Source: Verrucomicrobiota bacterium
GTDB lineage: Bacteria > Verrucomicrobiota > Kiritimatiellia > SS1-B-03-39 > UBA6053
Assembly (NCBI GenBank): GCA_020831625.1
Contig: JAFIGD010000001.1
Span: forward strand, 139,296 to 203,295
Length of the DNA: 64,000 nucleotides
Direction: 5' to 3'
Position 1 is the stretch's first letter, and each line of letters starts with the position of its first letter. Below the pieces are notes generated by a model. That model was not told where the DNA came from, ran no database searches, and worked only from the letters and a program-made list of their open reading frames with translations. This document shows positions 9,071 through 39,059 of the stretch, piece after piece. The position numbers and the translations under genes were made by a program.

Positions 9071-10657
9071 CTAACGCCCAACGGTGATTCGGTTCCCCGG
9101 GTCTCCGTAGGCGGCGTCGGGACAGGTGGCGGTTTGTTCCCGGACAATGTTGCGGCCCTCCGGGTCCGTCTCAGGAGTATACCAAACCCGTTTTTCAAAT
9201 TTACCGTTGCGGTAAAAAGTGGTGACGGCCGGACGGCTTGGGCTGGACGGGCGTTGGGCATCCGGATCGGGATGTTCGAACCCGTGAATCCGCACTTCGC
9301 CGAGGTGTGTGGCCTCTGCGGGGACTTCGGGGGGCGCGGGAGGGTCATAGTCGGTCACATGCCGGGTCATCCGCCGCTTTCCGGGAGGGGCTCCGTCTGA
9401 AAACGAGTCGAGCAGACCGCCGAGCAGGTCGTCGGTCTCTTCGATGGCGGCGGACGGATCGGGCACATATTCGATCACGGTGCGGTGGGTGGCGACAGGG
9501 CGGATCTCCAGCGTTCTGAAGCCCCGCTCATTGTAATCGTAGGCCACCCAGTTCCCGTCGCTTTCCAGACGATGCTTGATTTTCCCGCGGTGGGAGGCGG
9601 GCTCGGCATAGTGGATGTCGGCGGTTTCCCGGTCGCCGATTTTCCGGTGACGCTCCATTACATGCCAATTGCCCGCAATCCGTTCACTGCGCTCCGTTGT
9701 AACGCGTATCGTGCCGCCGCACAGGACGGTTCCCCGCTGACGAAAAAAATATTTCCCGTCATCGGAATACCACCGGCGGCGCCAGGGATGCGTCACCTCC
9801 CAGTTCTCGTCGCAGCGGTCGAGGTCGTAATCGCCCAGAGGATTGACGGTCCACTGATAATACGTGGGCTCTCCCCGGCTGCGCCGCGTGTATATCCGCA
9901 GATCACTCTTTTCATAGGGACCGGGATTTTCCACCCATGCCTGAAGAAAGGGATCCAACCCTTCTGGTGCGATATATCGGCCTTCATGGAGCACCGGAGG
10001 ATTTTTCTCAATCTCATCGTAAATAATCACCGTATAGGAACCGCTGTCGGTGTCTTCGACGACAGCGAAGTGCGTGGGGGTGAGCACCTGTTCGATCACG
10101 CCGTCCCCGTCGGTAAAAATCTGAATCCCCAGATCCGCGAGCGTGACGGGATCACCTTCGGGCGATTGCCGCATCACCACCGCGCCGAAGGGACGGTTTT
10201 TTCCGCCCCGGGCAATCATCAGAATTTTTTCACCGTCATGAAGGGTCAGTTCAAAGTAGGCGGGATTCACGGCGGTGGGCTGCCGCGCATCATCCAGCAT
10301 CCGCACGGTGACATCGCGGCCGCCGCGTGCGGGCCGGCCCACGTAGGTATCTGAACCCTCCAAAAATTCCGGACGGAGATACACATTGTCCCGATAGGTG
10401 ATTTTAATTTCCGCCGGCGTGACCCCGTCCGGCTGGAATTCGGTGACCCGCCGCACCGTGTACCCGTAAACAAAACGCAAAAAGTGACGGTGGTGAAACT
10501 CATCGGTGTGCTCATGTGTATGAATCGACAGCATTGGGCGCTCCTCCCCCTGCGGCACGGATCGTGGCCCCAAAAACCAGTGTTGATGCATTGCGTTCGC
10601 GGGAATGACCGGCAAAAACGCGGCCAATATCCATTGACATAAGATTCTTTTGTTCAT
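9071..10657 (-). CDS. Secreted protein of unknown function; last gene of the MoxR/vWA operon
   Basis: The ORF track gives 9071..11230, but the first ATG with a signal peptide (MNKRILCQWILAAFLPVIPANA) is at 10657. The gene lies 38 nt downstream of the Trx/HEAT gene. No family was recognised. Confidence 0.55.
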   Translation of the reverse strand: MNKRILCQWILAAFLPVIPANAMHQHWFLGPRSVPQGEERPMLSIHTHEHTDEFHHRHFLRFVYGYTVRRVTEFQPDGVTPAEIKITYRDNVYLRPEFLEGSDTYVGRPARGGRDVTVRMLDDARQPTAVNPAYFELTLHDGEKILMIARGGKNRPFGAVVMRQSPEGDPVTLADLGIQIFTDGDGVIEQVLTPTHFAVVEDTDSGSYTVIIYDEIEKNPPVLHEGRYIAPEGLDPFLQAWVENPGPYEKSDLRIYTRRSRGEPTYYQWTVNPLGDYDLDRCDENWEVTHPWRRRWYSDDGKYFFRQRGTVLCGGTIRVTTERSERIAGNWHVMERHRKIGDRETADIHYAEPASHRGKIKHRLESDGNWVAYDYNERGFRTLEIRPVATHRTVIEYVPDPSAAIEETDDLLGGLLDSFSDGAPPGKRRMTRHVTDYDPPAPPEVPAEATHLGEVRIHGFEHPDPDAQRPSSPSRPAVTTFYRNGKFEKRVWYTPETDPEGRNIVREQTATCPDAAYGDPGNRITVGR

Positions 10658-10695
10658 GAAACAGCCTTTCAATTTCAGGAGAGGACAGACAGGAT

Positions 10696-13600
10696 TCAGG
10701 CGGGCTTTTTCCACCGCGCATAGGTGATCAACAGCGAAAAACAGAACGCCGCGCCCCAGAGCGCGGGCGGAAGCTGCGCGGCCGCGCCGGGCCACACGGA
10801 AAGAGGCGCGCTGAGTCCGATGAGGAAAAGGATGCCCGCGACCACCAGTGTCGGAATCCACGGCGGGGTTTGTTTGGTGAGCAGGGGCCCGGAAAGACTG
10901 TTTCGGTTTGACCGCCGCAGTTGAACCGCCAGATTTCCGCCCTGGCTGAGCACCAGCATCACCACAACCGCGAGCATAACGTTCGCGGGCAGCGAAACAG
11001 GAAGCAGCGCGCCGATGAACAGCGCCGCAAGGGCGGCAGGCAGTGCCTTCGCGGGGGGGATCGGCGAAAAAAGCGCAAGTACCGGCAGACTCAGCAACAG
11101 AAGCAATCCGAGCTGCGGCGTGGGACGGATCCGGACACGCGGCGTGGCGGAGGCCGGAGCCGCCTCCGGCCGCGCCTCCCGACGGGTTACTTCGGGAAGC
11201 TCTCCGGGCTCTTCTTCGGGCTCCGCCCAATCCGCGGCGTCCGTCTCCGGAGCGGCGGGCCGGGGAACGGGAATCCAGCCGGTGCCCGGCGAATCCAGCG
11301 ACCGGGCGATGATGTCGCCAATGCGGTCGAACTCCAGGGCCTCGGCTCCGCAGTCCGCTCCGCCCGCGCCGGCAACCATCGGGGTGAGGCCGACCTGGCT
11401 CAACGGCAGGCCGTAGGCGAGATAAATTTCATAATACAAATCCAGAGCACCCGGTTCCGTGATGTCGATTTCGCGGACGGTCAAATCCGGAAACGTGGAC
11501 TCATACGTGTTCAACATTTCCCGGACCACAATACAGTCCGGGCAGCCTTCACTGTAAAAGTACAGCAGTGTGAGCGTGGTTGCCCCCTCCTCAGGCCGCA
11601 TCCCGTCCGGGTTCTCGTCAGCAGAGTCAGGATCCGTATCCGCGCGAAGAAAGGCCGTCCGGATTTCGTCCCCGGGTTCGCTGTCCGCGGTTTCGGGAGT
11701 TGCCCGGGAGTGACGGCTGTACCAGGGTGCGGTGCGTTCCCGAACCCGCCAGACATCCCGACTCGCAAGCCAGTCGACAAACGGCCGGTATTCGGGTCCG
11801 AGCCGGAGAAGCTGGGACTGAACCGGATCCCAGATGGCTTCCGCGATCGCGGAGGCGTCCGGCAACTGCGGCAGCGCCTCCAGCCAGTCGGCCGCCTCCG
11901 GCGCGCGGGCTTGACTGATGAGCGCCGCGCCGGCCAGAACACGAACCTCGGGCATGGCGTCGGTAAGCAGGTGATTCAACCGTTGTTCCGCATCCGGCGA
12001 AACGCGGGCGGGCGCGGCGCGGCGGCTGAGCGAGACCGCCATCTCCGGCAGGATCTGCCAGGACATCCGCTTGGATTCCGTCCGCAGGAACCACCAGGGC
12101 AGCACCCGCCGCACCGGGGTCGCCGGATCGCGGGTCAGCCGGTCGAGTTCATCCGCTGTCAGCGGCGCGGATTGGTTCAGTCGCGCCACCCAGGCCTGGG
12201 CGCGGAGATGCGGATCCACCAGGTTCCGTGTGTGCGGCTGTACGCCGACCGTAAACGCCTCGTTGCGGTGATACGCCGCCAGGGCAAGCGCCAGCGAAAG
12301 CCGGGCGAAGGCGGGCGGCGTGTCCGGGGTGTCGATGCTCAACCCTTTTTCGATATACGGACGCACCTCCCGCAGCGCGCTTTCGCGGAGTTGCTCCTGA
12401 AGTTGATGACGGTTCCACGGAACGCTCTCAGGAGAAATCGCGGGAGGATCCTCAAAAAACAACGGCAGAAAGGTTCCGGCGAAATCACGCCCGGCCAGCT
12501 CAAGGGTTGCGGCGGTGCGGACGGAGCTTCGCGGATCGTCAAGCAGATCGCGGGCGGCCCGCAGCATCATGTCATCATTGCCGGGCCGGTTCAGCAGCCG
12601 GGTCAGATCCTCTTCGGGAAGCGTTGCGGCATGTTCGATCAGATGCGGCAGCGCGGCGGCATTGCCCATTTCCACCAGCACCCGGGCACTCACCAGCCGC
12701 AGGGCCTCGTCCTCTGTGGTTTGAAAGAGGTCAAGCAGCGTTTCCTCAAGGGACGCGCCGCCGTCAACGGTGGCGGGAGCGGCGGGCTCCTCGAACGCCG
12801 CGAGCAGATCGTCGAGACCGGCGGCATCGGGTTCGGGAGCGGGGGCGGGGGCGGAGGGCTCGGCAAACGCCCCAAGGAGGTCATCCAGGAGCGGATCGCC
12901 CGCGCCGTCGGCGGTGGCCTGTGCGCCGGTCAGGCCGCGCAGGAGGGATGAGATCGGATCAGGCCCGGAGGTGGAGCGGGGAAGACGGATCGCGTCCGCA
13001 ACCGCCAGACGGAACGCATCGGGACCCTGCCGGAGCGCGCGGACAAGCTGCGCCTCGGCTTCCCGGCGTTCGCGCCCGGAGGCGGACAGTCCGTGGCGGG
13101 CCAGCAGCCGGAGCGCCGCCGCGCTGACATCCGCGTCCGAATGCTCCGCAAGTTTCAGGCCGGCGCGGACGCGGGAGGAGGCGCATCCGTCCAGGATGCC
13201 GAGCACCGTCACCAACTCCTCGTGCTCCCGGTCGGCCAGGGTTTCAAAAAACGCTTCCGGAAGCGTCACCCGCGATCCGCAGGCGATCCGGAGCAGGGAA
13301 AGGCGGTCCTCTGGAAATTCCGCCCACCAGGTCTCGATCATGCGCCCGCGCTGTTCAGTGTTTTCAGCCAGACCGAGCGCGGTTTCCAGGATCATGTTGC
13401 GGGCGAAGGGGTCGGGATCCCGGGCGTGTTTCATTAGGTCCGGCAGACGGTCCCGGGAGCGGGTCCCCCCCAGAGTCCGGGCCGCCTCGGCGCGCACCCG
13501 CCACCGTTCGTCCTCCAGGAGTTCAGTGACCCGCGGAATCAGCGAGGGATAACGGCCTTCGCGGACGGCATTGAGCGCGGCGAGGATGCGCTCCTCGTTC

Positions 13601-15045
13601 CCGGAGTCGAGCTGGGTGCGCAGCCAGTCCGAGACGGCCGCCGCTTCCTCAGGGGTCTGCGTGGAGGAGGCTATGCCAAACACATCCGGAGACTCCCCGT
13701 CCGGAGCGGTCGCGCTTTTCAGATTTCGCATGGCGGTGACCGCCACATCGATGCTCTCTTCGGTTTCAAGATGGGTCAGCACCTGCGGAAGCGCCTCCGG
13801 TCCCCCGCGCAGCAGCAAGCCTTCCACCACCGCCTCACGAATGAGAATATCCGAATCGTTCAGAAAGGCGGACAGCACCGGAACCGCCTCGCGGCCGCGC
13901 TCGCGGACCGCGCGCAACAGGTGCAGACGGGTGTCCAGCGGGGCGCGGCGGAGCCGATGGGCGGCGGCACCGGGATCCGGCCAGCCGATCCGCTGGAGGT
14001 CGAGGGTCAGGATCACGTCCTTCAGCCGGCTCCGCAGGGGTTCGGTCACCGCCTCCTGCTCCAGCAGCTCCTGAAGATAGGGCTGAACCGCGGGTCCGGC
14101 AAGCGCCAGGGTGCGCATGGCGCGTTGTTCGCGTTCGGGAACATCGGAACCGAGTTCGCGGACGGCATCCTCGACCTGTTCACGGGTGAGACGGGCAAAC
14201 CGGGGACGGGCCTGTTCGACGTCCGGGGCGTCCTCCACCCAGGCGCGCCAGGCGGTCCGCGCCTCGCGGGCCGCTTCGGACGCGGGCGGGGACCATGGGT
14301 CGAAGCCCCGGGAGGTTCCGGCCAGTTCCTCAAGCAGTTCCAGTGCCCCCAAACGCACGACCAACCGGGGATGCTCCAGCAGATCCACCCACATCGCCAC
14401 GGGCGGCGGAGACATCGTCCGCAGGGCCTCGCGCACGTTTCCGCCCGGATCCGCCGCCGGCAGCAGCGTCAGGGCTTCAATCAAAAGATCAGGGGTGGGC
14501 GGCGCCTCCGCGAGGCGTCGGAGCAGACCCGCATGTCGTGTCGCGCCGGGAATCTGTCCGGGGGAAAGGATCTGATCCAGCACCGCGCTGAAATCCTCCG
14601 AGGGCAGGAAGCCCGCAATCCGGAAAAGTTCCCGTCCGTCGGAATCCATCCAAACGACCGTGGGCACATTGCGGACTCCGCGCCGCATGGCCTGTGAGGG
14701 GTTGCGGTCCACATCGATTTCCACCAGAGTGAACCGGCGGAGGGCCGGACGGAGATCCGGATCGGCCAGCACCTCCTGTTTCAGACGGCGGCACCAGGAG
14801 CAGCCGGGACTGCTGAACAGCACCATCATCATTTGCCCCTGCGACTTGGCGCTCATCTGGGCGACATCCATATTCTCCAGCCAGCGCAAATGATCCGGCC
14901 CCGGATCCGGCAACGACAGCCGGTCAAGTTCCCTTAACATGCCGGGCCCCGGCGACGCCGCGTCTCCGCCCGGATCAAAGCGGGGCGGAGCCGCCCCCGA
15001 AGGGAGCAGCGCGCAGCAAAGAAGGAGAATATAGATGCGGGTCAT
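10696..15045 (-). CDS. Giant membrane-anchored protein with two thioredoxin-like CxxC modules and HEAT/PBS-lyase-like repeats
   Basis: Start chosen at the ATG at 15045 (signal peptide MTRIYILLLCCALLPSGAAPP), 1 nt after the upstream stop. Motifs include MMMVLFSSPGCSWCRRL (Trx-like), later LLYFYSEGCPDCIVV (second Trx-like) and many HEAT-like repeats (RVRAEAARTLG, PEVRVLAGAAL...). The C-terminus has TM helices. Confidence 0.65.
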   Translation of the reverse strand: MTRIYILLLCCALLPSGAAPPRFDPGGDAASPGPGMLRELDRLSLPDPGPDHLRWLENMDVAQMSAKSQGQMMMVLFSSPGCSWCRRLKQEVLADPDLRPALRRFTLVEIDVDRNPSQAMRRGVRNVPTVVWMDSDGRELFRIAGFLPSEDFSAVLDQILSPGQIPGATRHAGLLRRLAEAPPTPDLLIEALTLLPAADPGGNVREALRTMSPPPVAMWVDLLEHPRLVVRLGALELLEELAGTSRGFDPWSPPASEAAREARTAWRAWVEDAPDVEQARPRFARLTREQVEDAVRELGSDVPEREQRAMRTLALAGPAVQPYLQELLEQEAVTEPLRSRLKDVILTLDLQRIGWPDPGAAAHRLRRAPLDTRLHLLRAVRERGREAVPVLSAFLNDSDILIREAVVEGLLLRGGPEALPQVLTHLETEESIDVAVTAMRNLKSATAPDGESPDVFGIASSTQTPEEAAAVSDWLRTQLDSGNEERILAALNAVREGRYPSLIPRVTELLEDERWRVRAEAARTLGGTRSRDRLPDLMKHARDPDPFARNMILETALGLAENTEQRGRMIETWWAEFPEDRLSLLRIACGSRVTLPEAFFETLADREHEELVTVLGILDGCASSRVRAGLKLAEHSDADVSAAALRLLARHGLSASGRERREAEAQLVRALRQGPDAFRLAVADAIRLPRSTSGPDPISSLLRGLTGAQATADGAGDPLLDDLLGAFAEPSAPAPAPEPDAAGLDDLLAAFEEPAAPATVDGGASLEETLLDLFQTTEDEALRLVSARVLVEMGNAAALPHLIEHAATLPEEDLTRLLNRPGNDDMMLRAARDLLDDPRSSVRTAATLELAGRDFAGTFLPLFFEDPPAISPESVPWNRHQLQEQLRESALREVRPYIEKGLSIDTPDTPPAFARLSLALALAAYHRNEAFTVGVQPHTRNLVDPHLRAQAWVARLNQSAPLTADELDRLTRDPATPVRRVLPWWFLRTESKRMSWQILPEMAVSLSRRAAPARVSPDAEQRLNHLLTDAMPEVRVLAGAALISQARAPEAADWLEALPQLPDASAIAEAIWDPVQSQLLRLGPEYRPFVDWLASRDVWRVRERTAPWYSRHSRATPETADSEPGDEIRTAFLRADTDPDSADENPDGMRPEEGATTLTLLYFYSEGCPDCIVVREMLNTYESTFPDLTVREIDITEPGALDLYYEIYLAYGLPLSQVGLTPMVAGAGGADCGAEALEFDRIGDIIARSLDSPGTGWIPVPRPAAPETDAADWAEPEEEPGELPEVTRREARPEAAPASATPRVRIRPTPQLGLLLLLSLPVLALFSPIPPAKALPAALAALFIGALLPVSLPANVMLAVVVMLVLSQGGNLAVQLRRSNRNSLSGPLLTKQTPPWIPTLVVAGILFLIGLSAPLSVWPGAAAQLPPALWGAAFCFSLLITYARWKKPA

Positions 15046-15046
15046 G

Positions 15047-15739
15047 TCAGTACAACAGGGCGTAAACGAGAATATTGACAACGATTTCAGCGGCGTTGCG
15101 GATTTCATTGCCGCCACAGCAGCAACAGCCCTCAACCTTGGCGCTGTCGTTCAAACCTTCCGGTGAAAACACGACCACCAGCTTTCCGTTCCGCTCCAGC
15201 CCGGAAATCTTCACCTCCGGTCCGGGATTGGTCAACTCCACCTGCTCGATGTCGTACACGGTGTTCCAAAGCGGGTGCTCCCGGTCGATGTGCGTGAGAC
15301 GGCTGTCATCAAACAACCGGTTGATTTCACGCCGGAACGCCTCGGTCCACTCCTGGCTGCTGCAGCCGGAGGAGGCCAGAAGAAAACCGCCGCGGTCAAG
15401 ATACCGCCGCAGATTCTCCCGCTCGGCGGGCGAAAACATGAAGTCTTTTTCCCCGGTCATCATCACAAAGGGATACTGAAACAGCTCGGGGGAATCGAGT
15501 TTCACACTGGTGAAACGGCGGGCCACCGGGATGCCGGTTTCCCGTTGCGCCACGCTTAAAAACTCGTCGCTGAAACAACGGGACGTGTGCGTGCCCGCGA
15601 AGATCAGGTTGGCGGCCTGAATCACCCCCTCTTTTTCCTCCTGCGCCCGCGCGAACGGCATCAGAAGCAGACAAAGCAGGAGGCGCAACGCCGTCGGGTG
15701 TGAACTGTGTGTGGATGTTTTCATAACCATGACTTCCAT
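15047..15739 (-). CDS. DUF4159-type protein (family associated with BatA/MoxR aerotolerance-like operons)
   Basis: The ORF-track start at 15757 is TTG. The first ATG is at 15739, with further ATGs at 15730 and 15724; the last precedes a signal peptide (MKTSTHSSHPTALRLLLCLLLMPFARAQ). The C-terminus reads VEGCCCCGGNEIRNAAEIVVNILVYAL and the middle reads ELFQYPFVMMTGEKDFMFSPAERENLRRYLDRGGFLLASSGCSS, both typical of DUF4159. Confidence 0.65.
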   Translation of the reverse strand: MEVMVMKTSTHSSHPTALRLLLCLLLMPFARAQEEKEGVIQAANLIFAGTHTSRCFSDEFLSVAQRETGIPVARRFTSVKLDSPELFQYPFVMMTGEKDFMFSPAERENLRRYLDRGGFLLASSGCSSQEWTEAFRREINRLFDDSRLTHIDREHPLWNTVYDIEQVELTNPGPEVKISGLERNGKLVVVFSPEGLNDSAKVEGCCCCGGNEIRNAAEIVVNILVYALLY

Positions 15740-15746
15740 GTACGGG

Positions 15747-18515: not shown

Positions 18516-20734
18516 CAGATCAACCCCATTCTACGGCGAAGGCCCCATTCCAACAACGGAAAAAGCATCATGATGAACAGAATGCCGCCCCGGGCCCAGC
18601 GGGGATGCCAGACGGCCTCGCCGGTGGGGGTGAGGACATCGGTGGTTTCAAGGGTAAAGGCCCGTGCGGGATCTTCATCCTCCAGCCAGAGGCCGCCGCT
18701 GCGCTCCACGAACGTTCGGAGGGGTTCATCCTGAGGATCAAGTTGATCGAGTTCCCCCGGAGGAGGTGGCACCCGCAGCGGACGCGGACTGTCGGAGGCC
18801 TCCTCATCGCCCTCCTCGATCACCGTCAGCCAATACAGCCCCGGCGCGTCGGGTGTCCACTGACCGGTCAGCGCCCCCCCGCGTCCCGAAGGATAAAGAA
18901 CCGCCTCCCGGCTGCCTCCCGCCTCATCCCGAATGATCACCCTGGGCGGGCGGGTGGCCGGCTCATCGCGCGGAAGGCGGCGCTCGGCGTGCAGGCGGAT
19001 TTCCGTCCCGGCGGTCAACGCATCGGCTTCCCAGTCCAGACTCCAGGTGCGGCCGGGCTGAAAGCGCGCCGCCTGAGTGGTCCACAGCAGCACCTGCGTC
19101 CAAAAATCACCATACCACCGGTCTTCCGCCAGGGCGTCCGCCTGAAAATCCCAGTGCCACATTCCCTCCCCGTTGAGCAGGAGCAATTGACCGTTGCCGT
19201 AGGGCCGGCGGATCATGACCGGCCAGGCGCTGTCCTCGCCCGGCTCCGCCGCCTCCAGCAGCACCGCGGCCATTCCGTCGGTGAGCCGGAGATTCCGCAA
19301 CCCGCGCAGGGGCGGCAGCTGCTGCCAAACCTCCGAATCCATCCCCGGCAGCAGGTCGCCGAACAGGCCCGCGTTCGCGCCGGAGCGCGTGGGACGGGCC
19401 AGCCGAAGATCGGAGCGGTCCTCGCGCCACTCCACCGGCAGCAGCGATTCGAGCGCGGGACGCGAAACCGTGACCGGACGTCCCCGGGTGAAAATCACCG
19501 CCCCGCCGTGATCGCGGACAAAGCGGTGGAGCGCGGCGGTGCTTTCATGCGTGAACAGATAATCCATTCCGCGTCCCAGCAGAATCAAATCAAATTCGCG
19601 GAAGTCCAACGCCTCTCCGGGCAGACGGGCACTGTCCTCCGAGCGGGGGGCGGGGCTGTCCGGCTCCACCCGGAAAAACCGGTTGTCCGCCAGGCGGTGA
19701 AGGGTCGTGAGCCGGACCCCCTGGCGGCCGCGGAACCATTGCGCCAGGAATTTGCTGTCCCAGTGGGGAATCCCCTCCAGCAGGAGCACGTTCAGGTTAA
19801 TCTCCACGGCGTGAACCCGGAGGTCGCGGACATTGTTATCGACACGGGCTTCCGAAGGATCGGCCTCCAGCTCCAGCCGGAAGCTGTGCAGACCCTCCTC
19901 CAATTCCGGGGTGTGGAGCGTAAAGGGCGTGTCGCTGTTTTCGGGCAGGTCCAGCCGGGTTTCCGCCACCGCGCGGCCGCTCTCATCCCGGAGCACCAGC
20001 CGCTTGCGGAGCGGCGGAAGATGGCGCGATCTCACCGTGCCGCGCACGGCGCGTTCGGAACCGGCGGTCACGGTCAGCAGATCCTGATGCGGCCGCAGAT
20101 CAAGGTCCGGGCGTTCCACCGGAGACCCGATGCGCACGGCGGAGACGGGGATACGGTTGGCGCGGGCGCGCAGCGCCAGGGCCTCGAGTTCGCCTCCGGG
20201 TTCGCGGTCAACCGGCGTCGTGGGAATACCGTCCGTCAGAATCAACAGCCCTCTGGCGGGATGCGGATGACTTTGCGCCCGGTCCAGCGCGCCGCGAACC
20301 GCCCGGACAAAATCGGTGCCGGTTCCGTCGGGAGAAAGGCTGTCGAGATCCGCGGCAGACTGTTCCGGCTCCAGCGCGTCGGCGAACGGCAGAACCCGGA
20401 CCCGGGCGCGCGGCTCATCCGGCAGGGCGGCGATCAGACGTTTGGCCGTTTCAAACCGGGTGCTTTCATCGGACCGCCCGGCCACATCCATGGAGCCGCT
20501 GCGGTCCAGAAGCACCCATGCGTTACCGGACAGATCGGCGTCCAGCGCGCGGAACTCACCGGGATTGAACAGCAACACCCCCATGCAAAGCAGCGTGCAG
20601 AGGCGAAGCAACGGCGAAAGAGACCGCCAGGGGGCGGGCAGCGCGCCGGAGGTCTTTTTGGCGGTGAGCAAAACCCCGGCGGCAAGGGCCACCATCAGCG
20701 GTATCAGCGTTTCAAGAGGCAGAAGCGGATTCAT
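18515..20734 (-). CDS. BatA-like membrane-anchored von Willebrand factor A (vWA) domain protein (second copy)
   Basis: 739 aa. The N-terminus reads MNPLLPLETLIPLMVALAAGVLLT (BatA_N-like). The vWA/MIDAS motif is VLLDRSGSM. Its start overlaps the upstream stop. Confidence 0.7.
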   Translation of the reverse strand: MNPLLPLETLIPLMVALAAGVLLTAKKTSGALPAPWRSLSPLLRLCTLLCMGVLLFNPGEFRALDADLSGNAWVLLDRSGSMDVAGRSDESTRFETAKRLIAALPDEPRARVRVLPFADALEPEQSAADLDSLSPDGTGTDFVRAVRGALDRAQSHPHPARGLLILTDGIPTTPVDREPGGELEALALRARANRIPVSAVRIGSPVERPDLDLRPHQDLLTVTAGSERAVRGTVRSRHLPPLRKRLVLRDESGRAVAETRLDLPENSDTPFTLHTPELEEGLHSFRLELEADPSEARVDNNVRDLRVHAVEINLNVLLLEGIPHWDSKFLAQWFRGRQGVRLTTLHRLADNRFFRVEPDSPAPRSEDSARLPGEALDFREFDLILLGRGMDYLFTHESTAALHRFVRDHGGAVIFTRGRPVTVSRPALESLLPVEWREDRSDLRLARPTRSGANAGLFGDLLPGMDSEVWQQLPPLRGLRNLRLTDGMAAVLLEAAEPGEDSAWPVMIRRPYGNGQLLLLNGEGMWHWDFQADALAEDRWYGDFWTQVLLWTTQAARFQPGRTWSLDWEADALTAGTEIRLHAERRLPRDEPATRPPRVIIRDEAGGSREAVLYPSGRGGALTGQWTPDAPGLYWLTVIEEGDEEASDSPRPLRVPPPPGELDQLDPQDEPLRTFVERSGGLWLEDEDPARAFTLETTDVLTPTGEAVWHPRWARGGILFIMMLFPLLEWGLRRRMGLI

Positions 20735-22722
20735 GTCCGCACCGCCCGGGAAGATGCGCTTCGGATCGTCGCGATCTGTTCAAACAGGGCGAACAGAAAC
20801 GCCAGCGCCGCCAGCAACGGCCAGAGCGGACGTCCCTCGCGGAGCGTGTTCAGGTCCGTCGCGCGGGAGAGCAGAGACAGCCCGCCGCCTTCCAGTTCCT
20901 CCGGGCCGCGGGTGGTCAGGTCGGATTCCGCGGCGGGGAGATTCACCGCGCGGACCTGCAGGGTTCCGCCGCTGTCCGCGTTGCGGTAGCGGTAAAATCC
21001 GGGCGGAAGCGGCCCGGCGGCGCGGACCGTGTTTTCATCCACCCGCAGGGGAAGGGTCTCCCCCTGTGGGTCGACAAGTTCGGGCCGGGCCGCGGGCAGT
21101 TGCCCCCGGGGCGTGAGCAGCACATCTCCGGAATCCGCCGGCGCCGGCACCCGGGAGGGACGCGCCCGAAACAGCCACTCCCCGAACAGGGAAACCCATT
21201 CAACCTGCGCCGACAGCGTGCTGTCTTCCGGACTCAGGGACGCCGCCCATAAAAAGACCGAGGGCCGTTCCCGATGCCGCAGCCAGACCGGCTCTCCGCT
21301 CTCCAGCAGCAGCAGAGGCTCGTGCGCATCGGGTTCGGGCGACAGGGCTGCGAACCGCGACACCAACCCCCGCGCCGGGGACCCGTACCGTCCGTCTGCA
21401 AACAGGCTCAGGAGATCGGGCCAGGGCTCGGGCACCCGCAGGGACCGGGCGGGCTCAAGCCGGGCGGACGCGCCGGGAGAGGCGCGCAGCCCCAGCCACG
21501 CATTCGCGGCGGCGGTGGCATTGCCCGGACGGACCATCAGCAATCCGCCCCGCTCCACAAAAGCAGTGACCAACTCAAGCCCGGCACCGTCCCAGCCGCT
21601 GATCAGCAGCACATCGTGGGTGTCGGCAAGATCCTGCAGACGGGTCAGATGGGTTCCCGTCACCCCCGGCAGCGCATCCAGTCCGCGCAGCCAGACACGG
21701 GCGGTGTCATCACTGCCATACACCGCCGCGCGCAGCGACGCCTGAAGACTCACCGTCCCGCGCCGGATATTGTCGGCCGGAAACGCGTCCGCCTCCAGTT
21801 CCGCCGCCACCGGAAAGGTGCCGGAATCCTCAATCTCCATCGGCACCGTGATCAACGCACTGCCGCCGGCAGGCAGATCCGCGGACCGCTGTTCCCGCCG
21901 CTCGCCCACACGCACCACCAGCGAGCGGCGCACCGGCGCGGCGGAAAAATTCCGCACATCCACCTCCACTGTGAACGGCTGCCCCGCCACCGGCGCGGGC
22001 GGGTACACCCGCAGGCCGGTGACCGCCTGATTGGGCACGCTTTCGGTCGCGACCGGCAACAGACGCACAGTGACCCCTTCGGGCACCTGGAAATCGGCCG
22101 GGTCCCATCCGCCCGGCTGAAAATCCGAGAGAATCACAATTTCGCGGGGACCCGGAAGATCACGTAACTGACTGACCGCCAGCAGATACGCCTCGTGCAG
22201 CGATCCGCCCTCCAGAGTGGCGGGCAGGCGGCGGATTTCATCGATCAAATGGCTCTTGTTCACCCCGGGTTCGGCGTAAAGACTTTCAGGGAGTGCACGC
22301 GCGCGGATCACATTTGCGCGGTCGCGGGCGGAAAGGTGCCGGAGGATATCCGCGGCCTCGGCGCCGGCGCGGGCGTATCGGGATTGCGCCCCTTCCCCCG
22401 CGCGCATGCTCGCGGTGGCGTCCAGGACTACCACCACATTCCGCCCATGTTCCTCCAACCCCGCCAGCGGCCGCTCCGTGAAATACCGGGGCTGCAAAAA
22501 AACGCCAACCATGCAGGCGACCCAGAGAGTGCGGAGAATCAACAAGAGCCAGTGATGCGGACGCTTGATCCGGGCATTGTTCCGGTGCGCCCGCTCCAGA
22601 AGCATCAGCGAGGGGTACGCCAGCAGCCGCGGACGCGGGCGGGCCATCAAATGCAGCAGCAGCGGCCCCGCCACGAGGGGAACCAACGGAAGCAGTCCGG
22701 GATTGTCGAGACCAATGCTCAC
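20731..22722 (-). CDS. BatA-like aerotolerance-type vWA domain membrane protein
   Basis: 663 aa. A GTG start at 22722 overlaps the DUF58 stop. The N-terminus reads LDNPGLLPLVPLVAGPLLLHL (BatA_N). The vWA motif is VVVLDATASM. Confidence 0.7.
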   Translation of the reverse strand: MSIGLDNPGLLPLVPLVAGPLLLHLMARPRPRLLAYPSLMLLERAHRNNARIKRPHHWLLLILRTLWVACMVGVFLQPRYFTERPLAGLEEHGRNVVVVLDATASMRAGEGAQSRYARAGAEAADILRHLSARDRANVIRARALPESLYAEPGVNKSHLIDEIRRLPATLEGGSLHEAYLLAVSQLRDLPGPREIVILSDFQPGGWDPADFQVPEGVTVRLLPVATESVPNQAVTGLRVYPPAPVAGQPFTVEVDVRNFSAAPVRRSLVVRVGERREQRSADLPAGGSALITVPMEIEDSGTFPVAAELEADAFPADNIRRGTVSLQASLRAAVYGSDDTARVWLRGLDALPGVTGTHLTRLQDLADTHDVLLISGWDGAGLELVTAFVERGGLLMVRPGNATAAANAWLGLRASPGASARLEPARSLRVPEPWPDLLSLFADGRYGSPARGLVSRFAALSPEPDAHEPLLLLESGEPVWLRHRERPSVFLWAASLSPEDSTLSAQVEWVSLFGEWLFRARPSRVPAPADSGDVLLTPRGQLPAARPELVDPQGETLPLRVDENTVRAAGPLPPGFYRYRNADSGGTLQVRAVNLPAAESDLTTRGPEELEGGGLSLLSRATDLNTLREGRPLWPLLAALAFLFALFEQIATIRSASSRAVRT

Positions 22723-23588
22723 GGAGTCAGCCCCTCCAGACAGCGCAGCACGGGTTGATCGGTGCCGACGACCCGATAGGCGATTCCCCGCCGCATGGCC
22801 AGTTCCCGGAAGGCGCGGTGATGGTCGTCCAGCACCTTCCGGTAGGCGGCGCGCAACTCCCGGGGATCGGCGTTAAGTTTTTCAGAGGTCTCCAAATCCC
22901 GGAAGGCGATCAGCTCGCCCTCGGGCAGGTCCCGCTCCCGGGGATCCAGCACATGCACCAGGTGAAGATCAACCCCCTGATGCACAAAGGGATTCAACGC
23001 CGTGAAACACTCCGCGGGATCGCAGTAGAAATCGGAAAACACCACCAGCGTGCACCGGCGGTTCAGCAGCGTGTTCAAATGACGGAGATCAGCAGGCAGA
23101 TCCGTCACGCCCGCGGCCCCGCTCTGATCCAGGGTGTGCAGGAGATGATTCACATGCCGCGCGCTGCCGCCGGGCGGATGCCACTCCTGTTTTCCGTCCC
23201 GCGCAAGTAAAAGCCCCACCTGATCCTGACTGTGATGCACCACATGCGCCAGACAGGCGGCGGCCTGGGAGGCGAAACGGTGTTTGGCGGGCGATTCGCC
23301 GAAGGCCATGGACGCGCTCGCATCCAGCAGGATCACGCAGCCGGTCTGGGATTCCTGCTCATAGGTGCGCAAGACATGCCGGTCACTCCGCGCAAACACC
23401 CGCCAGTCCACCCGGCCGGGATCGTCACCGGGCGCATACGCGCGGTAATCCCGGAACTCCGTGGAGGAGCCTCGCGCCGGGGACATGTGGCGGCCGGCGT
23501 GACGGCCCTCCACCCGGGTCCGGGGAGCGAAGCGCACCTTCTCCAGCTCGCGCAGCAGCGCCGGGGTGAGTAAACGGGAGGCGGACAT
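22719..23588 (-). CDS. DUF58 protein (MoxR partner with a vWA-like fold)
   Basis: 289 aa reading GSSTEFRDYRAYAPGDDPGRVDWRVFARSDRHVLRTYEQE...VILLDASASM, the DUF58 hallmark. It lies directly downstream of MoxR. Confidence 0.8.
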   Translation of the reverse strand: MSASRLLTPALLRELEKVRFAPRTRVEGRHAGRHMSPARGSSTEFRDYRAYAPGDDPGRVDWRVFARSDRHVLRTYEQESQTGCVILLDASASMAFGESPAKHRFASQAAACLAHVVHHSQDQVGLLLARDGKQEWHPPGGSARHVNHLLHTLDQSGAAGVTDLPADLRHLNTLLNRRCTLVVFSDFYCDPAECFTALNPFVHQGVDLHLVHVLDPRERDLPEGELIAFRDLETSEKLNADPRELRAAYRKVLDDHHRAFRELAMRRGIAYRVVGTDQPVLRCLEGLTP

Positions 23589-23602
23589 GGATACGGACCG
23601 GT

Positions 23603-24604
23603 TTAATCCAGACGTTTAAGCAGCGTGGCGATGATTTCCTCGACGCTGACCCCTTCGCCCACCGCATTGTAGTTGGGCACCACGCGGTGACGCAGCACCG
23701 GAGCCGCGACCGCATGCAGCTCTTCAGCGGTGGCGGCGGCTTTGCCCCGGATGAGCGCCAGCGCCCGCGCCGCGCGCGCCAGATTCTGCGAGGCACGCGG
23801 TCCGGCGCCCCAGGCGACATAGTGCTTCACATACTCGTCGGCGGTTTCCGAGCCCGGCCGGGTGGCATGCACCAGATTGATGATCATGTCCAGCACCGGA
23901 TCCGGCAGCGGGGCCCGCGTGGCCGCCGCCTGAAGCGTCTCCAGTTCGCCCTCCTTCAACAGACTCCTCGCCTCCGGCTGGTGCTCGCCAATCGTCGCCT
24001 GAACAATCCGTTTTTCCTCTTCACGGGTCGGATAGCCCACATTCAGGCTGTACAGAAAACGGTCCAACTGCGCTTCCGGAAGCGGATAGGTCCCCTCCTG
24101 CTCAATCGGATTCTGCGTGGCGAACACAATAAACGGAGACGGAAGGCTGAGTGTCTTTCCGGCCACGGTCACCTGCTTTTCCTGCATGGCCTCCAACAGG
24201 GCGGACTGCGTTTTCGGCGGTGTGCGGTTGATCTCGTCCGCCAAAATCAGATTGGCGAACACCGGACCGTGTACAAACTCGAATTCCCGCCGCATCCCGT
24301 CGGCGTGGGTTTGCAGGATCTCACTGCCCAGAATATCCGTGGGCATCAGGTCGGGCGTGAACTGAATCCGGTGAAAACTCAGACCCAACACCTGACCCAG
24401 CGTGTTGATCAAAAGAGTTTTCGCCAGACCGGGCACCCCGATCAACAGGGCGTGCCCCTTGCAGAGCAGACAGGTCAGCAGTTCCTCCACCACATCATCC
24501 TGACCGATGATGACCCGGCCGATTTCCAAGCGGATATTTTGCAGGGTGGCGCGGACATCATCCCAGTCCGGGGTGACGGGGTTTGCGGGGTCGGATGTGC
24601 TCAT
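23603..24604 (-). CDS. MoxR-family AAA+ ATPase
   Basis: 333 aa. Walker A reads LLIGVPGLAKT, Walker B reads LILADEINR, and sensor 1 reads ATQNPIEQEGTYPLPEAQLDRF. Its ATG overlaps the upstream stop (ATGA at 24601-24604). Confidence 0.9.
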   Translation of the reverse strand: MSTSDPANPVTPDWDDVRATLQNIRLEIGRVIIGQDDVVEELLTCLLCKGHALLIGVPGLAKTLLINTLGQVLGLSFHRIQFTPDLMPTDILGSEILQTHADGMRREFEFVHGPVFANLILADEINRTPPKTQSALLEAMQEKQVTVAGKTLSLPSPFIVFATQNPIEQEGTYPLPEAQLDRFLYSLNVGYPTREEEKRIVQATIGEHQPEARSLLKEGELETLQAAATRAPLPDPVLDMIINLVHATRPGSETADEYVKHYVAWGAGPRASQNLARAARALALIRGKAAATAEELHAVAAPVLRHRVVPNYNAVGEGVSVEEIIATLLKRLD

Positions 24605-27480
24605 GGTTCGGGGGTTTCCTCGGGTTCGGGGCCTTTGAATTGGATCATAAATATGGTTTGCGCGCCATAGGGAATGTCGGCGGGCGTCAGCCAGGCATCC
24701 ACCGTTTTGTGGAAATCCTCACCGCCGTACATGCCCATCATCATCATTTCTTCGGTCATTTCGTCTTCCGACAGCTTCGTCAGCCGGACCTCATCCTCCA
24801 GGCCGAAGGACCGCATCCCGTAAAAATTCGGACCGTGCAACATCACATGCACACCGTCTGTCGTTTGCCCGCGCATCATCCGGTCAGTACTGAACAGGAT
24901 CGAGACCCCGGGTTTAATGCCGGTTTCCCGGATATACATCATGCCGGATTCCCCCTGACGGGCGGCGTCCTGCACCTGTTGCAAAAGCGCAAGCAAGTGA
25001 TCCTTCGTCAACGCCCCGCCCACCGCCGGCAGGTCCTCCAGCCATTCAGGCAGATCGTCCGCCAAATGAATCACCTTCCGGCGGGGACCGGTCATCGCGG
25101 ACCAGAGATCTTTGTTGTTTTGAATCGAAGGACGGTCCAGTTGTTCCAGAATCCAGAGCGCTTCATTCATATCCGCAGAGTTCAGCAGGTTCAACAGGGC
25201 CTCAACATCCGACCCGCGGAGAACGGCGCTCATTTCTTCGGCCCGTTCCTCAGACACATTGCCGCTGTCGGGCAGCACCGCGGACCAGTCCACCTCCCCG
25301 CCCTCAAGAACCGTGCGGGCGGCGGGCAAGAGCAGCTCAGCCACACCCGCGCCATCCCCGGGACCGGCGGAGGCCATCGCCTGATGGATACCGACAAGCT
25401 TGTCCATGTCATCCAGCTGCAGCATCAGGATGCCGAAGGCGGCCGCGGAAAGGATCGCGGGGTCGTCTCCCTCCAACAGGGGCAGCCAGAGTTCGGGAAT
25501 CAAATGAATTTCGGTTTCGCCACCCTCCGCTCCTTCGGTGCCGACAACATCCGGCTCCTCCGTGTCGGCAACGTCCGGACCGTCTCCCTCCGGATCGAGA
25601 TAGTACAAAAGCATATCCGATGAATCACTGTGCATGCCGAAGTCCGATTCATCCATTCCCGACATTTGCAGCAGCCCCAGGGTCAACTGAATCAACTGCA
25701 CTTTCTGACCGGACTCTTCGGCGGCGTCCAGCCGGGCAAGCAGCACCCGCTGCACGGCTTCCGTGTCGCGCGTAAGCGCCCGGAGCTGTAGAAAGTCGTT
25801 GGGCCGCGGGCTTTCCCCCTTCAGAACAAGATCCGCCAACCCGTCCAAGGTCAACCCGGCCGGAACGGCGTCTTCACCGTCGGCGGCCTCCGCCGCCTCC
25901 GGCGGCTGCAGACTCGCCAGCAATTGTTCGATCATCTCTTTCTCCCAAGAATCCTCCTCCTCGAGCTTCTCCCCGAAACGCTCCGAAATAATATCCGCGA
26001 CTTCACGCCGGAAGGCGGCCCCCTCCTCCCCTTCAAACAGAGGGGTCCAGGAGGCCACGTCCCCCAATTCATACAAATGCGCCGTCTGAACCCGGGCGGA
26101 AACCTTTTCCCGGATCTCACCGATGATCTCCGAGTCCCCCGAGGCCAGCAACGTGAACACCACATCCGGCCCCAATTCATCGAACGACTCACCCCGCTCA
26201 TACAGAAACTTGGCGATCTCCAAACGGGTTTTTCCCCGGAACGCCGCGTGAACCTCCTCCGCGGCCGCCGTCAATTCCCCTCCGGAAAGCGTGTCCAGCT
26301 CATCCGGATGCACCGCGCGAAGCCATTGTTCGGCAAGTTCGGACAATTGAACCGGCCGGGGAAAGGACCGCCGCAACTCCCTTAACTCCCAGTCCTCCCG
26401 ACCCCCGGAGAAAGGATTGTGACGGTTCCCGCTCACCTCCTGCGCGGAGAGCGGAAGCACACGGACATCCTCAACCAGGGCGATAAACACCGGAATCGCG
26501 TCCGCGCCCAGATCCCAAAGCGTCTCAAAAAAAGCGCGGGTCTCATCATTCAGAAACCCGTGATCCCGGGCTTCGCGGATCATCAGCCGCTTCGGACGCA
26601 ACAGCCAGTTCTCTTCCCCCGAAAGCATCGAATAAAACGCGGGGTCCCGGTCCGAGACAAACAATTCATACAATTCACGCTGCGCGTCGCTGAACGCCGC
26701 GGGAAGTTCAGGAGCCGGATCCCCCAGGGCCGTGCGCCAGGTTTCCAACACCTCATCGGCGATTGCGGCGGAAAGCCAGGTGGCGCGGTGCTGCGTCAAC
26801 ATGGCGTCCAGCGCCTCAGCCAGCGCCTCCAGTTCCCCGTCCAGCAGATAGTCCTGAAACCGGTCATGATAATTCAAATCGTGCAGCGCGCTCAGTCCCG
26901 CCACCAGCGTTTCCCGCCGTCCGGCGGTTTCAAACAGAAACGCGGCCAATTGATTCGCGATATCCGGGTGGCCGACTTGATGCAGGCGCACCGCCATGAT
27001 CATATAATTCCCGAGTTCCCGCGGACCGATCCGCAAGGTCCGGCCCTGCTCGCGGTTCCGGTTCCACTGATCAAACTGCCGCCGCAGATCACGCATCAGA
27101 TCTGCGGACATCACGGTGACCGCGTCTTCAGCCGGGGAACTCCGCATCCGCATCCCGCTCGAAGCCCGAACCGGACCGTCCCACATCCGGTTTCCCCGAA
27201 GAAGCTTGATCTCCCCGTCCTCCTCCCAGAACCAGCCCGCATACGACTGACCGCCGGAATACGAAATGCTGTGCATTCTCGACGAACGCTCCGCACTGAA
27301 GATGTGCCGGGCCGGTTGAGCGCCTTCCGGAACCGGCAGCAGCCCCGCACGCTCAAACACCGCGAACCCCGCCGAATTATCCGGCGCATTCACAATTAAA
27401 ACCGGAAAATCCTCCGCATACAGCAAAGACATAAAGGGGAAAAGAAAGGCGGAACAGCGGGTAAACAGTTTGGCGCTCAT
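24601..27480 (-). CDS. Large secreted protein of unknown function; first gene of the MoxR/vWA operon
   Basis: 959 aa with an ATG at 27480 and a signal peptide (MSAKLFTRCSAFLFPFMSLLYA). It is acidic and helix-rich. No family was recognised. Confidence 0.55.
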   Translation of the reverse strand: MSAKLFTRCSAFLFPFMSLLYAEDFPVLIVNAPDNSAGFAVFERAGLLPVPEGAQPARHIFSAERSSRMHSISYSGGQSYAGWFWEEDGEIKLLRGNRMWDGPVRASSGMRMRSSPAEDAVTVMSADLMRDLRRQFDQWNRNREQGRTLRIGPRELGNYMIMAVRLHQVGHPDIANQLAAFLFETAGRRETLVAGLSALHDLNYHDRFQDYLLDGELEALAEALDAMLTQHRATWLSAAIADEVLETWRTALGDPAPELPAAFSDAQRELYELFVSDRDPAFYSMLSGEENWLLRPKRLMIREARDHGFLNDETRAFFETLWDLGADAIPVFIALVEDVRVLPLSAQEVSGNRHNPFSGGREDWELRELRRSFPRPVQLSELAEQWLRAVHPDELDTLSGGELTAAAEEVHAAFRGKTRLEIAKFLYERGESFDELGPDVVFTLLASGDSEIIGEIREKVSARVQTAHLYELGDVASWTPLFEGEEGAAFRREVADIISERFGEKLEEEDSWEKEMIEQLLASLQPPEAAEAADGEDAVPAGLTLDGLADLVLKGESPRPNDFLQLRALTRDTEAVQRVLLARLDAAEESGQKVQLIQLTLGLLQMSGMDESDFGMHSDSSDMLLYYLDPEGDGPDVADTEEPDVVGTEGAEGGETEIHLIPELWLPLLEGDDPAILSAAAFGILMLQLDDMDKLVGIHQAMASAGPGDGAGVAELLLPAARTVLEGGEVDWSAVLPDSGNVSEERAEEMSAVLRGSDVEALLNLLNSADMNEALWILEQLDRPSIQNNKDLWSAMTGPRRKVIHLADDLPEWLEDLPAVGGALTKDHLLALLQQVQDAARQGESGMMYIRETGIKPGVSILFSTDRMMRGQTTDGVHVMLHGPNFYGMRSFGLEDEVRLTKLSEDEMTEEMMMMGMYGGEDFHKTVDAWLTPADIPYGAQTIFMIQFKGPEPEETPEP

Positions 27481-27569
27481 AGATCTCCAATGAAATACAA
27501 CGTTAAAAAGGCATAAACAAATGACACTTTTTAAGCAGGGAGATCAAGAGAGAATTTAAAAAAAGTGGC

Positions 27570-32936: not shown

Positions 32937-33149
32937 GTTTTTTCTAGAATTGTGGTTTTGTCTTAAAATGAAATGCTTTTCCCTTAGCAAAGGTCATCTT
33001 TCCCCTTAGATACTGTAAATCATTCATTACAAGCAAATTGCAACACTTTATCCCTTTTACCTTAAAATGACCTCTTTTGTTCTTAGCACTCTGAAACATC
33101 ACACTTAAACGGCATTAACCTCTTTAAAATAACAACTTATGTAATATTT

Positions 33150-35093: not shown

Positions 35094-35124
35094 TGGATTA
35101 AAATGAGTAGGCTTCGGCATCAGA

Positions 35125-38836: not shown

Positions 38837-38846
38837 TGAAAACCAA

Positions 38847-39033: not shown

Positions 39034-39059
39034 GTTGCTCCTTGGTAACAATTGTTACC

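Follow-up and report, generated by a model that had tools for sequence, protein, structure and literature searches.

What is the function of a MoxR/DUF58/BatA gene cluster that is joined to a giant thioredoxin/HEAT-repeat protein and to a secreted protein with a cluster of cysteines, and is such a cluster a local expansion of a known operon or an architecture of its own? The question is raised by nine consecutive genes, here named g1 to g9, on the minus strand between positions 9071 and 27480 of a 64,000-nucleotide stretch (the window) of contig JAFIGD010000001.1 from a Verrucomicrobiota bacterium. A sequence-only reading of this DNA had taken them as a Bat-type core that was expanded here with secreted and redox-active giants and had proposed an envelope assembly or oxidative-folding machine. 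The identity of the operon and its conservation can now be stated with high confidence: g1 to g8 constitute a vertically inherited envelope operon of Verrucomicrobiota, Lentisphaerota, and Kiritimatiellota, and g9 is a local extra gene. With regard to function, we favor, at a probability of roughly 45%, a trans-membrane complex of MoxR and von Willebrand factor A (vWA) proteins in the envelope that possesses a dedicated thiol module working in the reductive and not in the oxidative direction, and we infer the full mechanism.

A genome scan covering one genome per GTDB species was anchored on g8, as the alignment of g6 contained no stretch that was conserved enough, and yielded 62 loci, in which gene order was scored with hidden Markov models (HMMs) built from the window and the first loci. 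These g8-anchored loci extend upstream only to MoxR, and g1 was checked by means of C-terminal fragments. In loci with enough upstream DNA, g2 to g8 share one strand and do not change their order. The clear exception is locus L032, where a g8 relative stands alone and none of g2 to g7 is found in 9.7 kb upstream, and in locus L051 g2 and g3 were not detected by the HMMs. Locus L032 is situated on a 3.2 Mb contig of a Verrucomicrobiae metagenome-assembled genome (MAG), and rearrangement or assembly error are both possible there, as they are in L105 (see below). A word-indexed search identified 17 relatives of g8, and the five contigs inspected all show the same order, down to 25% identity in g8: an unknown protein of about 916-1017 amino acids (aa), MoxR, DUF58, BatA, its paralog of about 733 aa, a transmembrane (TM) protein of about 920 aa, DUF4159, and the HEAT/thioredoxin giant. 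According to the labels of their source records, the 62 loci belong mostly to Verrucomicrobiota, i.e., Akkermansiaceae (including an Akkermansia MAG, L052), Luteolibacter (including a cultured isolate, L063, from Luteolibacter sp. Populi, NZ_CP161812.1, about 2.58-2.60 Mb), Haloferula, Chthoniobacteraceae, and Spartobacteria, and the other labels are Lentisphaerota (15), PVC (Planctomycetes-Verrucomicrobia-Chlamydiae) group (2), and Omnitrophota, Desulfobacteraceae, and ‘uncultured bacterium’ (one each). One Kiritimatiellia contig carries all eight genes from g1 to g8.

An independent anchor, DUF4159 in metagenomes, yielded 80 loci. Among the 57 of them in which the DNA continues downstream for 600 nt or more, g8 follows on the same strand as g7 in 54, a count that includes cases hidden by stop-to-stop coordinates of open reading frames (ORFs) as well as four weak matches 1-1.6 kb away; in the remaining three, g8 is inverted once (L105, opposite strand to g7) and none was seen in two. 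On the other side, g6 directly precedes g7 in 43 of 44 metagenome loci with upstream DNA. The four weak matches (L121, L130, L136, and L150) are g8-like ORFs that begin 1-1.6 kb past g7 and score only 58-199 bits against the g8 model, and their spacing and low scores hint at a gene insertion or at an N-terminal region that has diverged in that lineage. Two contigs from human-gut metagenomes (L144 and L147) encode a DUF4159 protein with the CCCCGGNE motif that is 50-51% identical to g7, and in L144 it is situated in the same g4-g8 order; thus the operon is present in PVC bacteria of the gut. Different loci have different genes after g8 (rpsD; a YkuD gene and then rpoA; birA; an M23 peptidase), and the operon adjoins varied housekeeping genes elsewhere, e.g., rpsD, rpoA, fusA, and birA. 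From these comparisons of gene order, the eight-gene layout is read as the ancestral and rigidly conserved architecture of three PVC phyla, so that, contrary to the earlier view, the core was not expanded in this genome. At locus L018, on the contig of an uncultured bacterium, a second and more divergent MoxR-DUF58-BatA set is encoded about 3 kb downstream of g8 (17049-21229, plus strand), and therefore a classical short MoxR operon can coexist with the eight-gene operon in these genomes.

The first gene, g1, belongs to the conserved set as well. Its N-terminus resembles a signal peptide and the protein is predicted to be secreted, and the copy in the window is very acidic (net charge -89) with a single cysteine, whereas the family as a whole is acidic to a milder degree, its net charge per 100 aa having a median of -3.2. 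For g1, g6, and g9 no Pfam or NCBIfam family was matched, even at E ≤ 10 in Pfam. A word-indexed search with g1 returned only 4 homologs; an exhaustive profile search returned 483 cluster representatives at E ≤ 1e-3 and 389 at E ≤ 1e-10, and the idea of a near-unique gene was rejected, the four matches reflecting the sensitivity limit of the indexed search. Family members mostly comprise about 900-1070 aa, and the N-termini inspected resemble signal peptides. ORF fragments that run into MoxR match the extreme C-termini of the g1 family in seven distant loci, i.e., from Kiritimatiellia (L068), Victivallales (L019), Verrucomicrobiaceae (L049), a Luteolibacter isolate (L063), and L018, L008, and L003. 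The g1 family is found directly upstream of MoxR wherever this can be checked, and because these upstream fragments match it in distant loci, g1 seems to be a fast-evolving yet conserved first gene. An AlphaFold2 model of g1 from 4 sequences is unreliable (predicted local distance difference test, pLDDT, of 56) and consists mostly of helical repeats and a C-terminal β domain. A relationship of g1 to the HEAT region of g8 was considered and was not detectable (hhalign probability 20%).

In contrast, g9 does not share in this conservation. Its product has a signal-peptide-like N-terminus and is predicted to be secreted, no family or PDB match was found for it, and no counterpart was detected in the 67 comparison loci scanned with a g9 model. 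The GC content at its third codon positions (GC3), 0.67, is the lowest of the nine genes. Given other genes after g8 elsewhere, g9 appears from these comparisons as a lineage-specific add-on outside the conserved operon, and its earlier listing as a member of the operon is not sustained. Tyr-Asp-rich segments in g9 (WVAYDYNERGF, TVIIYDEIE) recall YD/RHS-type repeats.

With respect to the core, the sequence-only reading named the families correctly, as all its domain calls were borne out by searches with Pfam and NCBIfam HMMs. The g2 product is a MoxR ATPase of the MRP type (AAA_3, 2.5e-62, and AAA_lid_2) with intact Walker A (GVPGLAKT) and Walker B (LILADE) motifs, and it also gives weak matches to BchD/ChlD, BchI, and CobT-like families. 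The g3 product combines DUF58 (1.8e-44) with VWA_2 (3.3e-11) and contains the metal ion-dependent adhesion site (MIDAS) motif DASAS, the D.S.SM motif being kept in 34 orthologs. In g4, BatA (7.2e-11), VWA_2 (2.2e-9), and the double-TM model TIGR02226 are recognized. The next protein, g5, scores 26.6 bits with VWA_2 against a cut-off of 27, displays the MIDAS motif DRSGS, and proves to be, over its full length, a divergent paralog of g4 (hhalign 99.2%, E 1.2e-19, 547 columns), which upholds the earlier description of a double BatA. Its ortholog in locus L001 has a weak GATase1_like (PF07090) match; no relationship of g4 or g5 to g7 was detectable, though regions of g5 and g7 are both GATase1-like candidates. 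The periplasmic domain of g6 consists of a β-rich part, a long helical or coiled-coil part, and a Gly-rich tail, as judged from 46 aligned orthologs, and its only sequence matches in PDB are designed coiled coils. Conserved cysteines are few in the periplasmic parts of g4, g5, and g6 according to ortholog alignments.

The distribution of positive charges suggests that g4 and g5 start outside and consist of a first TM helix, a basic cytoplasmic loop, a second TM helix, a large periplasmic region with the vWA domain, and a C-terminal TM helix. In g4 the loop between the first two helices contains 9.8 Lys and Arg in 30 residues and lies within the conserved BatA_N domain (36 orthologs). The g6 protein is predicted to start inside, with two TM helices, a basic loop of 70 aa, a third TM helix, and about 750 periplasmic residues. 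Only MoxR, DUF58, and the short basic loops would therefore be cytoplasmic, and export is predicted for g1, g7, and most of g8; the short basic loops stand out as candidate contact sites for the ATPase. The bulk of six out of eight conserved proteins would thus lie in the periplasm, and in this respect the idea of an envelope machine proves sound. The predicted topology agrees with that of the BatA-like BB0173 of Borrelia, the vWA domain of which was experimentally mapped to the periplasm (PMC5700661).

Two components set the operon apart with regard to thiol chemistry, and the first is g7. It is a DUF4159 protein (PF13709; 106.2 bits against a cut-off of 25.9, 2.1e-30), predicted to be secreted by a signal peptide of the Sec type, not of the Tat type. 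Its residues C50, C121, and C200 to C203 are invariant in 57 operon orthologs and 50 database homologs, and C37 is present in about 90% of them. The AlphaFold2 model is confident (pLDDT 86) and displays a GATase1-like fold, the best match in PDB being 4i66, a DUF4159 protein (Foldseek E 2e-12, TM-score 0.67-0.75, profile E 2e-16); next come ThuA-like proteins, GATases, and the N-terminal domain of IFT52. In this model, C121 lies at a strand-Gly-Cys-Ser-helix turn, which is the position of the nucleophile elbow in class I amidotransferases. Three DUF4159 proteins from outside the operon, i.e., 4i66 itself (Hoch_4089 of Haliangium), one from a Gemmatirosa megaplasmid, and one from a Corynebacterium plasmid, are devoid of these cysteines and of MoxR/vWA neighbours. 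DUF4159 homologs number more than 1600 in a database search, and in the literature searched nothing beyond the Pfam database paper was found on this family.

The second is g8, which matches Thioredoxin_2/7 and HEAT_2 in Pfam, contains exactly two CxxC motifs (C82SWC and C1168PDC) with about 900 residues of HEAT repeats between the two modules, and measures about 1350-1550 aa in the different copies of the operon. Its N-terminal thioredoxin domain (Trx) aligns locally to the C-terminal (γ) thioredoxin of DsbD and TsoB and to DsbH. All g8 relatives keep the C-terminal GCxxC (17/17 and 57/57), which belongs to a glutaredoxin (Grx)/Trx-like segment just before the TM region. In 49 of the 57 this segment leads into a membrane domain of about 250 aa that bears the invariant motifs DG-x-NPCAFA and ELACTGQVY, of which NPC and CTGQ place one cysteine in each of two TM helices and form no CxxC. 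One or both motifs are missing in eight, which include the window clade (the window, L003, L005, L006, and L008) as well as L009, L012, and L034. The TM region of g8 in the window (aa 1305-1449) contains no conserved cysteine, NPC and CTGQ being absent from the whole clade. The CxxC of the N-terminal Trx is present in 6/8 of the relatives that are without TM motifs versus only 15/49 of the others; the two exceptions among the eight are L026, which is cut at a contig end, and L008, which was not re-checked by eye. Since a Trx-fold CxxC adjoins a polytopic domain with two single cysteines, the membrane domain of g8 relatives may be termed DsbD-like by pattern, which is not an established family membership.

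These features might be combined as follows. A MoxR hexamer (g2) together with DUF58 (g3) would act on the cytoplasmic loops and thereby build g4, g5, and g6 into a periplasmic complex, or remodel that complex, which would hold the cysteine-cluster protein g7 and probably the acidic helical g1 as a candidate MIDAS ligand. The g8 protein would be the thiol-disulfide oxidoreductase of the complex itself, a HEAT scaffold bearing Trx-fold CxxC modules, and would keep the cysteine cluster of g7, or another client, reduced. In most lineages the two-cysteine membrane domain of g8 would import cytoplasmic electrons in the manner of DsbD or CcdA. In the window clade, electrons would come from a housekeeping DsbD/CcdA encoded elsewhere in the genome, by way of the N-terminal DsbD-γ-like Trx, because the membrane domain has lost both cysteines and this Trx is present. 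A reductive pathway is suggested because the N-terminal Trx resembles DsbD γ and DsbH and the membrane domain of the relatives shows the cysteine pattern of DsbD/CcdA, and the likely physiological output would be envelope maintenance under oxidising conditions, in keeping with what mutants in bat and in the cmd envelope operon are reported to show in other phyla. Such a mechanism would fit the partial rescue of Bacteroides fragilis bat mutants by reducing agents, for which export of reducing power was proposed (as reported in PMC3557215), and the lower survival of oxidative stress after loss of batA in Riemerella (PMC11834572).

Several points weigh against this reductive reading. Bat mutants of Leptospira show no oxidative-stress defect (PMC3557215), a caution against generalising too far. 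The N-terminal Trx, absent from 36/57 relatives of g8, cannot be essential to the conserved function, and the absence of membrane cysteines in the window leaves the proposed electron path incomplete here. For the membrane domain of the relatives there was no sequence match in PDB at E ≤ 10 and no DsbD match in Pfam, an almost full-length but weak ArsG match (E 0.003) and SfLAP in 1/9 are only hints, and an internal repeat was not detected when its two halves were compared (hhalign 15.6%). The proposal that g7 is a client of g8 derives from adjacency and co-occurrence, and the signal peptides of g1, g7, g8, and g9 as well as all TM segments were assigned by hydropathy and the positive-inside rule only. 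Similarly, a single transcription unit is deduced from spacing and synteny; a promoter scan was uninformative (3 promoter-like sites versus 2.2 expected), and so was a terminator scan, in which terminator-like hairpins were scattered within genes. In its strongest form, i.e., a self-contained trans-envelope redox-chaperone machine in which a two-cysteine membrane conduit not recognised before, fused in g8 to a Grx-like domain and a HEAT scaffold, feeds electrons to a polycysteine, GATase1-like DUF4159 protein held by MoxR-driven vWA proteins, the proposal appears doubtful to us.

The alternative that survives best, unlikely as we consider it, is maturation of a metal cofactor, in which a metal centre in g7 would be loaded or remodelled by MoxR together with the MIDAS proteins and g8 would do no more than keep the ligand cysteines reduced until the metal is inserted, as modelled on CoxD, NorQ/NorD, or chelatase-type MoxR/vWA pairs. 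In g7 the invariant cysteines, six to seven in number and four of them in a row, lie on loops after β strands and would suit a metal or cluster site, the weak matches of g2 recall the relationship of MoxR to chelatase ATPases, the MIDAS motifs of g3, g4, and g5 are conserved, and MoxR-class ATPases aid the assembly of metal centres in CO dehydrogenase and NO reductase (summarised in PMC3893208). However, MoxR and DUF58 are cytoplasmic, a Sec-type g7 could not be exported folded and metal-loaded, and no gene for a metal transporter or metal chaperone is present in the operon.

Somewhat less likely again is a structural or adhesive scaffold of the envelope, a periplasmic lattice of the vWA proteins, g6, g1, and the HEAT giant that would stabilise the envelope, as has been suggested for cmdA-D of Rhizobium, and in which the cysteines would serve as oxidation sensors that signal to MoxR. 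Such a role would suit the giant helical-repeat proteins g1 and g8 and the coiled-coil protein g6, the signalling-complex role suggested for the Bat proteins of Leptospira (PMC3557215), and the retention of the operon in the window clade despite loss of the membrane cysteines, and mutants in the cmd operon of Rhizobium leguminosarum are reported to have defects of envelope and cell shape (as cited in PMC5700661 and PMC3893208). In contrast, the GCxxC found in 57/57 and the membrane cysteine pair found in 49/57 of the g8 relatives argue for catalytic electron transfer and not for passive structure, and among the eight proteins no known signalling output domain was identified with Pfam and NCBIfam.

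We consider it improbable that the Trx modules of g8 add disulfides to secreted products of the operon in the way of DsbA/DsbB or VKOR-Trx fusions, the direction that had been suggested from the sequence alone. The CxxC Trx-fold domains would indeed be periplasmic, one of them is fused to a membrane domain in the relatives, and g7 is rich in cysteines and predicted to be exported. However, the Trx matches are to reductase-type families (DsbD γ and DsbH) and not to DsbA, the membrane domain has single cysteines of the DsbD/CcdA type in two helices and no CxxC, unlike DsbB or VKOR, and the other exported proteins of the operon, with their few conserved cysteines, offer few candidate substrates. 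An anti-phage or conflict system of the nucleoside triphosphate-dependent MoxR-vWA class is hardly credible, in spite of a bpMoxR (PF20030) match on g2 (1.2e-11) and of a restriction-, Schlafen-, and AbiE-rich stretch that begins about 3 kb upstream, since g2 scores 209 bits with AAA_3 versus 44.5 bits with bpMoxR, no β-propeller or effector domain occurs in the nine proteins, PADLOC was negative save for a sub-threshold OloA match on the HEAT region, and a fixed order across three phyla beside varied housekeeping genes is the opposite of a mobile defence island.

As the surrounding DNA has 60-70% GC and contains many antisense ORFs of more than 250 aa, ORF length alone is weak evidence for a gene, because long ORFs are common on both strands of GC-rich DNA. 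The nine genes are real: GC3 exceeds GC1 and GC1 exceeds GC2 (first and second codon positions) in all of them, six of the nine pass the gathering score in Pfam, and many other loci carry homologs of g1 to g8 in an identical order. ORF listing and translation place nine consecutive minus-strand genes where the sequence-only reading had placed them, with the overlapping or nearly abutting junctions it had described (from -4 to +38 nt), and most of its gene sizes stand; g8 comprises 1449 and not 1450 aa and g9 528 and not 529 aa, the latter starting at the ATG at 10657 and not at 10660. An alternative start of g7, TTG at 15757, would give 236 aa. The g8 protein is identical to NCBI protein P0001, ‘MAG: HEAT repeat domain-containing protein [Verrucomicrobia bacterium]’. 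The coordinates of all these features are collected in Table 1.

Table 1. Genes g1 to g9, their parts, and the upstream gap, in window coordinates. The spacing is that to the next gene downstream, negative values being overlaps.
Feature	Position	Strand	Length and remarks	Spacing (nt)
AT-rich gap upstream of g1	27481..27569	-	89 nt; candidate operon promoter region, by position alone	
g1	24601..27480	-	959 aa	-4
g2	23603..24604	-	333 aa; start overlaps g1 stop by 4 nt	+14
g3	22719..23588	-	289 aa; 14 nt downstream of g2	-4
g4	20731..22722	-	663 aa; GTG start	-4
g4, N-terminal double-TM domain	22489-22713			
g4, vWA domain	22120-22437		MIDAS DATAS	
g4, C-terminal TM	20770-20826			
g5	18515..20734	-	739 aa	-1
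g5, double TM				
g5, vWA domain	20108-20515			
g5, possible GATase1-like region				
g5, C-terminal TM			followed by RRR	
g6	15747..18515	-	922 aa	+22
g6, three TM helices	within 18018-18446			
g6, basic cytoplasmic loop			70 aa	
g6, helical/coiled-coil part	~16176-17048			
g7	15047..15724	-	225 aa from ATG at 15724; matches NCBI protein P0022	+1
g7, C50	15575-15577			
g7, C121	15362-15364			
g7, C200-C203	15116-15127		in GCCCCGGNE	
g8	10696..15045	-	1449 aa; starts 1 nt past g7 stop	+38
g8, signal peptide				
g8, Trx	14566-14883		C82SWC	
g8, HEAT repeats	~11746-14448			
g8, Grx-like module	11296-11583		C1168PDC	
g8, TM region	10699-11133			
g9	9071..10657	-	528 aa; ATG at 10657; 38 nt gap from g8	

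In the gap upstream of g1, a scan for the sigma-70 consensus gave no match. At the other end, a convergent DUF2298 gene (7050-9059) ends 12 nt past g9 and closes the block. Within this DUF2298 gene a 7-nt unit, TCACTCG, is repeated 18.4 times (8419-8547, plus strand) and encodes the peptide repeat RHSSLV(I/T). Because a 7-nt period is not a multiple of three, gain or loss of one unit would shift the frame, and the repeat is a candidate for a slipped-strand phase-variation switch in a membrane glycosyltransferase-like protein. About 3 kb upstream of the operon there is a defence-island-like stretch (~30258-48715, both strands) with a GC content of 0.51-0.58 versus 0.60-0.70 nearby, which encodes a ResIII helicase, two Schlafen/AlbA_2-HATPase_c_4 proteins, an N6/N4 DNA methylase, an AbiEi-like regulator, a DUF3686/AAA giant of 1732 aa, and a protein of 665 aa without family. 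Farther away (53460-60042, minus strand), a run of overlapping genes includes those for heme A synthase (COX15-CtaA), a 434-aa protein without family, and the permease and ATPase of an ABC-2 transporter.

MoxR-DUF58-BatA operons are among the most widespread bacterial clusters without known mechanism, and the phenotypes published for them, which concern aerotolerance, envelope integrity, and virulence, do not agree between phyla. The version of the PVC bacteria hard-wires two clues, a thiol-disulfide oxidoreductase and a partner with an invariant cysteine cluster, and thereby provides a testable redox link. The cultured Luteolibacter isolate, the Akkermansia MAG, and the human-gut contigs indicate that tractable and medically relevant hosts may exist. 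The g1 family, with at least 483 clusters, g6, and the membrane domain of g8 are sizeable unannotated families for curation. If the redox-chaperone machine were real, it would provide the first concrete biochemical activity for the Bat/MoxR-vWA envelope system, support the 1999 hypothesis of an export of reducing power, and define g1, g6, and the g8 membrane domain as three new protein families.

How does the operon compare with known systems? With the Bat operon (moxR, DUF58, and batA-E in Bacteroides, with homologs in spirochetes, e.g., bb0170-bb0176 of Borrelia, and in Flavobacteriia) it shares an MRP-type MoxR followed by DUF58 and then by two membrane-anchored vWA proteins, the first of which has the N-terminal double-TM domain of BatA (PF07584), and periplasmic vWA domains; in addition, the phenotypes in other phyla point to oxidative stress and partial rescue by reductants. 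In contrast, MoxR is the second gene here, after g1, and no match to BatC (TPR), BatD (PF13584), or BatE (SH3/TPR) was found on the nine proteins, with E ≤ 10 allowed for g1, g5, g6, and g9. The earlier likening to a Bat operon holds for MoxR, DUF58, and the two vWA proteins, but this is not a canonical Bat operon because BatC, BatD, and BatE are absent, and their place is taken by an acidic secreted g1 of about 950 aa, a coiled-coil g6 with three TM helices, DUF4159 with its cysteine cluster, and the HEAT/Trx/Grx giant. Furthermore, g4 and g5 are about twice as long as typical BatA and BatB.

The closest functional analogue may be the cmdA-cmdD operon (RL3499-RL3502) of R. leguminosarum. According to alphaproteobacterial annotations, the cmd operon also joins BatA_N, DUF4159, and a large TM protein. 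It is likewise described as MoxR-led, broadly conserved, and coding for membrane proteins, and its loss is reported to damage envelope integrity and cell shape (as cited in PMC5700661 and PMC3893208). It differs in having four genes versus eight, it is not reported to include a thiol-redox component, and the two are likened by description and not by sequence.

With DsbD, CcdA, and ScsB, 49/57 of the g8 relatives share a periplasmic Trx-fold CxxC fused to a polytopic domain with one cysteine in each of two helices. In contrast to them, g8 has HEAT repeats between its modules and is tied to a MoxR/vWA operon, the copy in the window is without membrane cysteines, and HMMER comparisons with PDB and Pfam revealed no homology for the membrane domain. 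Similarly, 4i66 has the fold and the family of g7, but not C50, C121, or the CCCC motif, and is not encoded beside MoxR/vWA genes. The MoxR-vWA-β-propeller conflict systems (Kaur et al., eLife 2020, PMC7159879) have MoxR and vWA in common with the operon, which also gives the weak bpMoxR match, and these ternary systems differ from it, as the operon is without β-propeller, effector, or mobility and has a housekeeping-like synteny. In the literature, no description was found of the eight-gene arrangement, nor of a thioredoxin or HEAT partner for Bat-type operons. The core of MoxR, DUF58, and BatA/BatB-like paralogs is a known module of the Bat/MRP type, and the eight-gene arrangement in which it is embedded is as yet undescribed and widespread.

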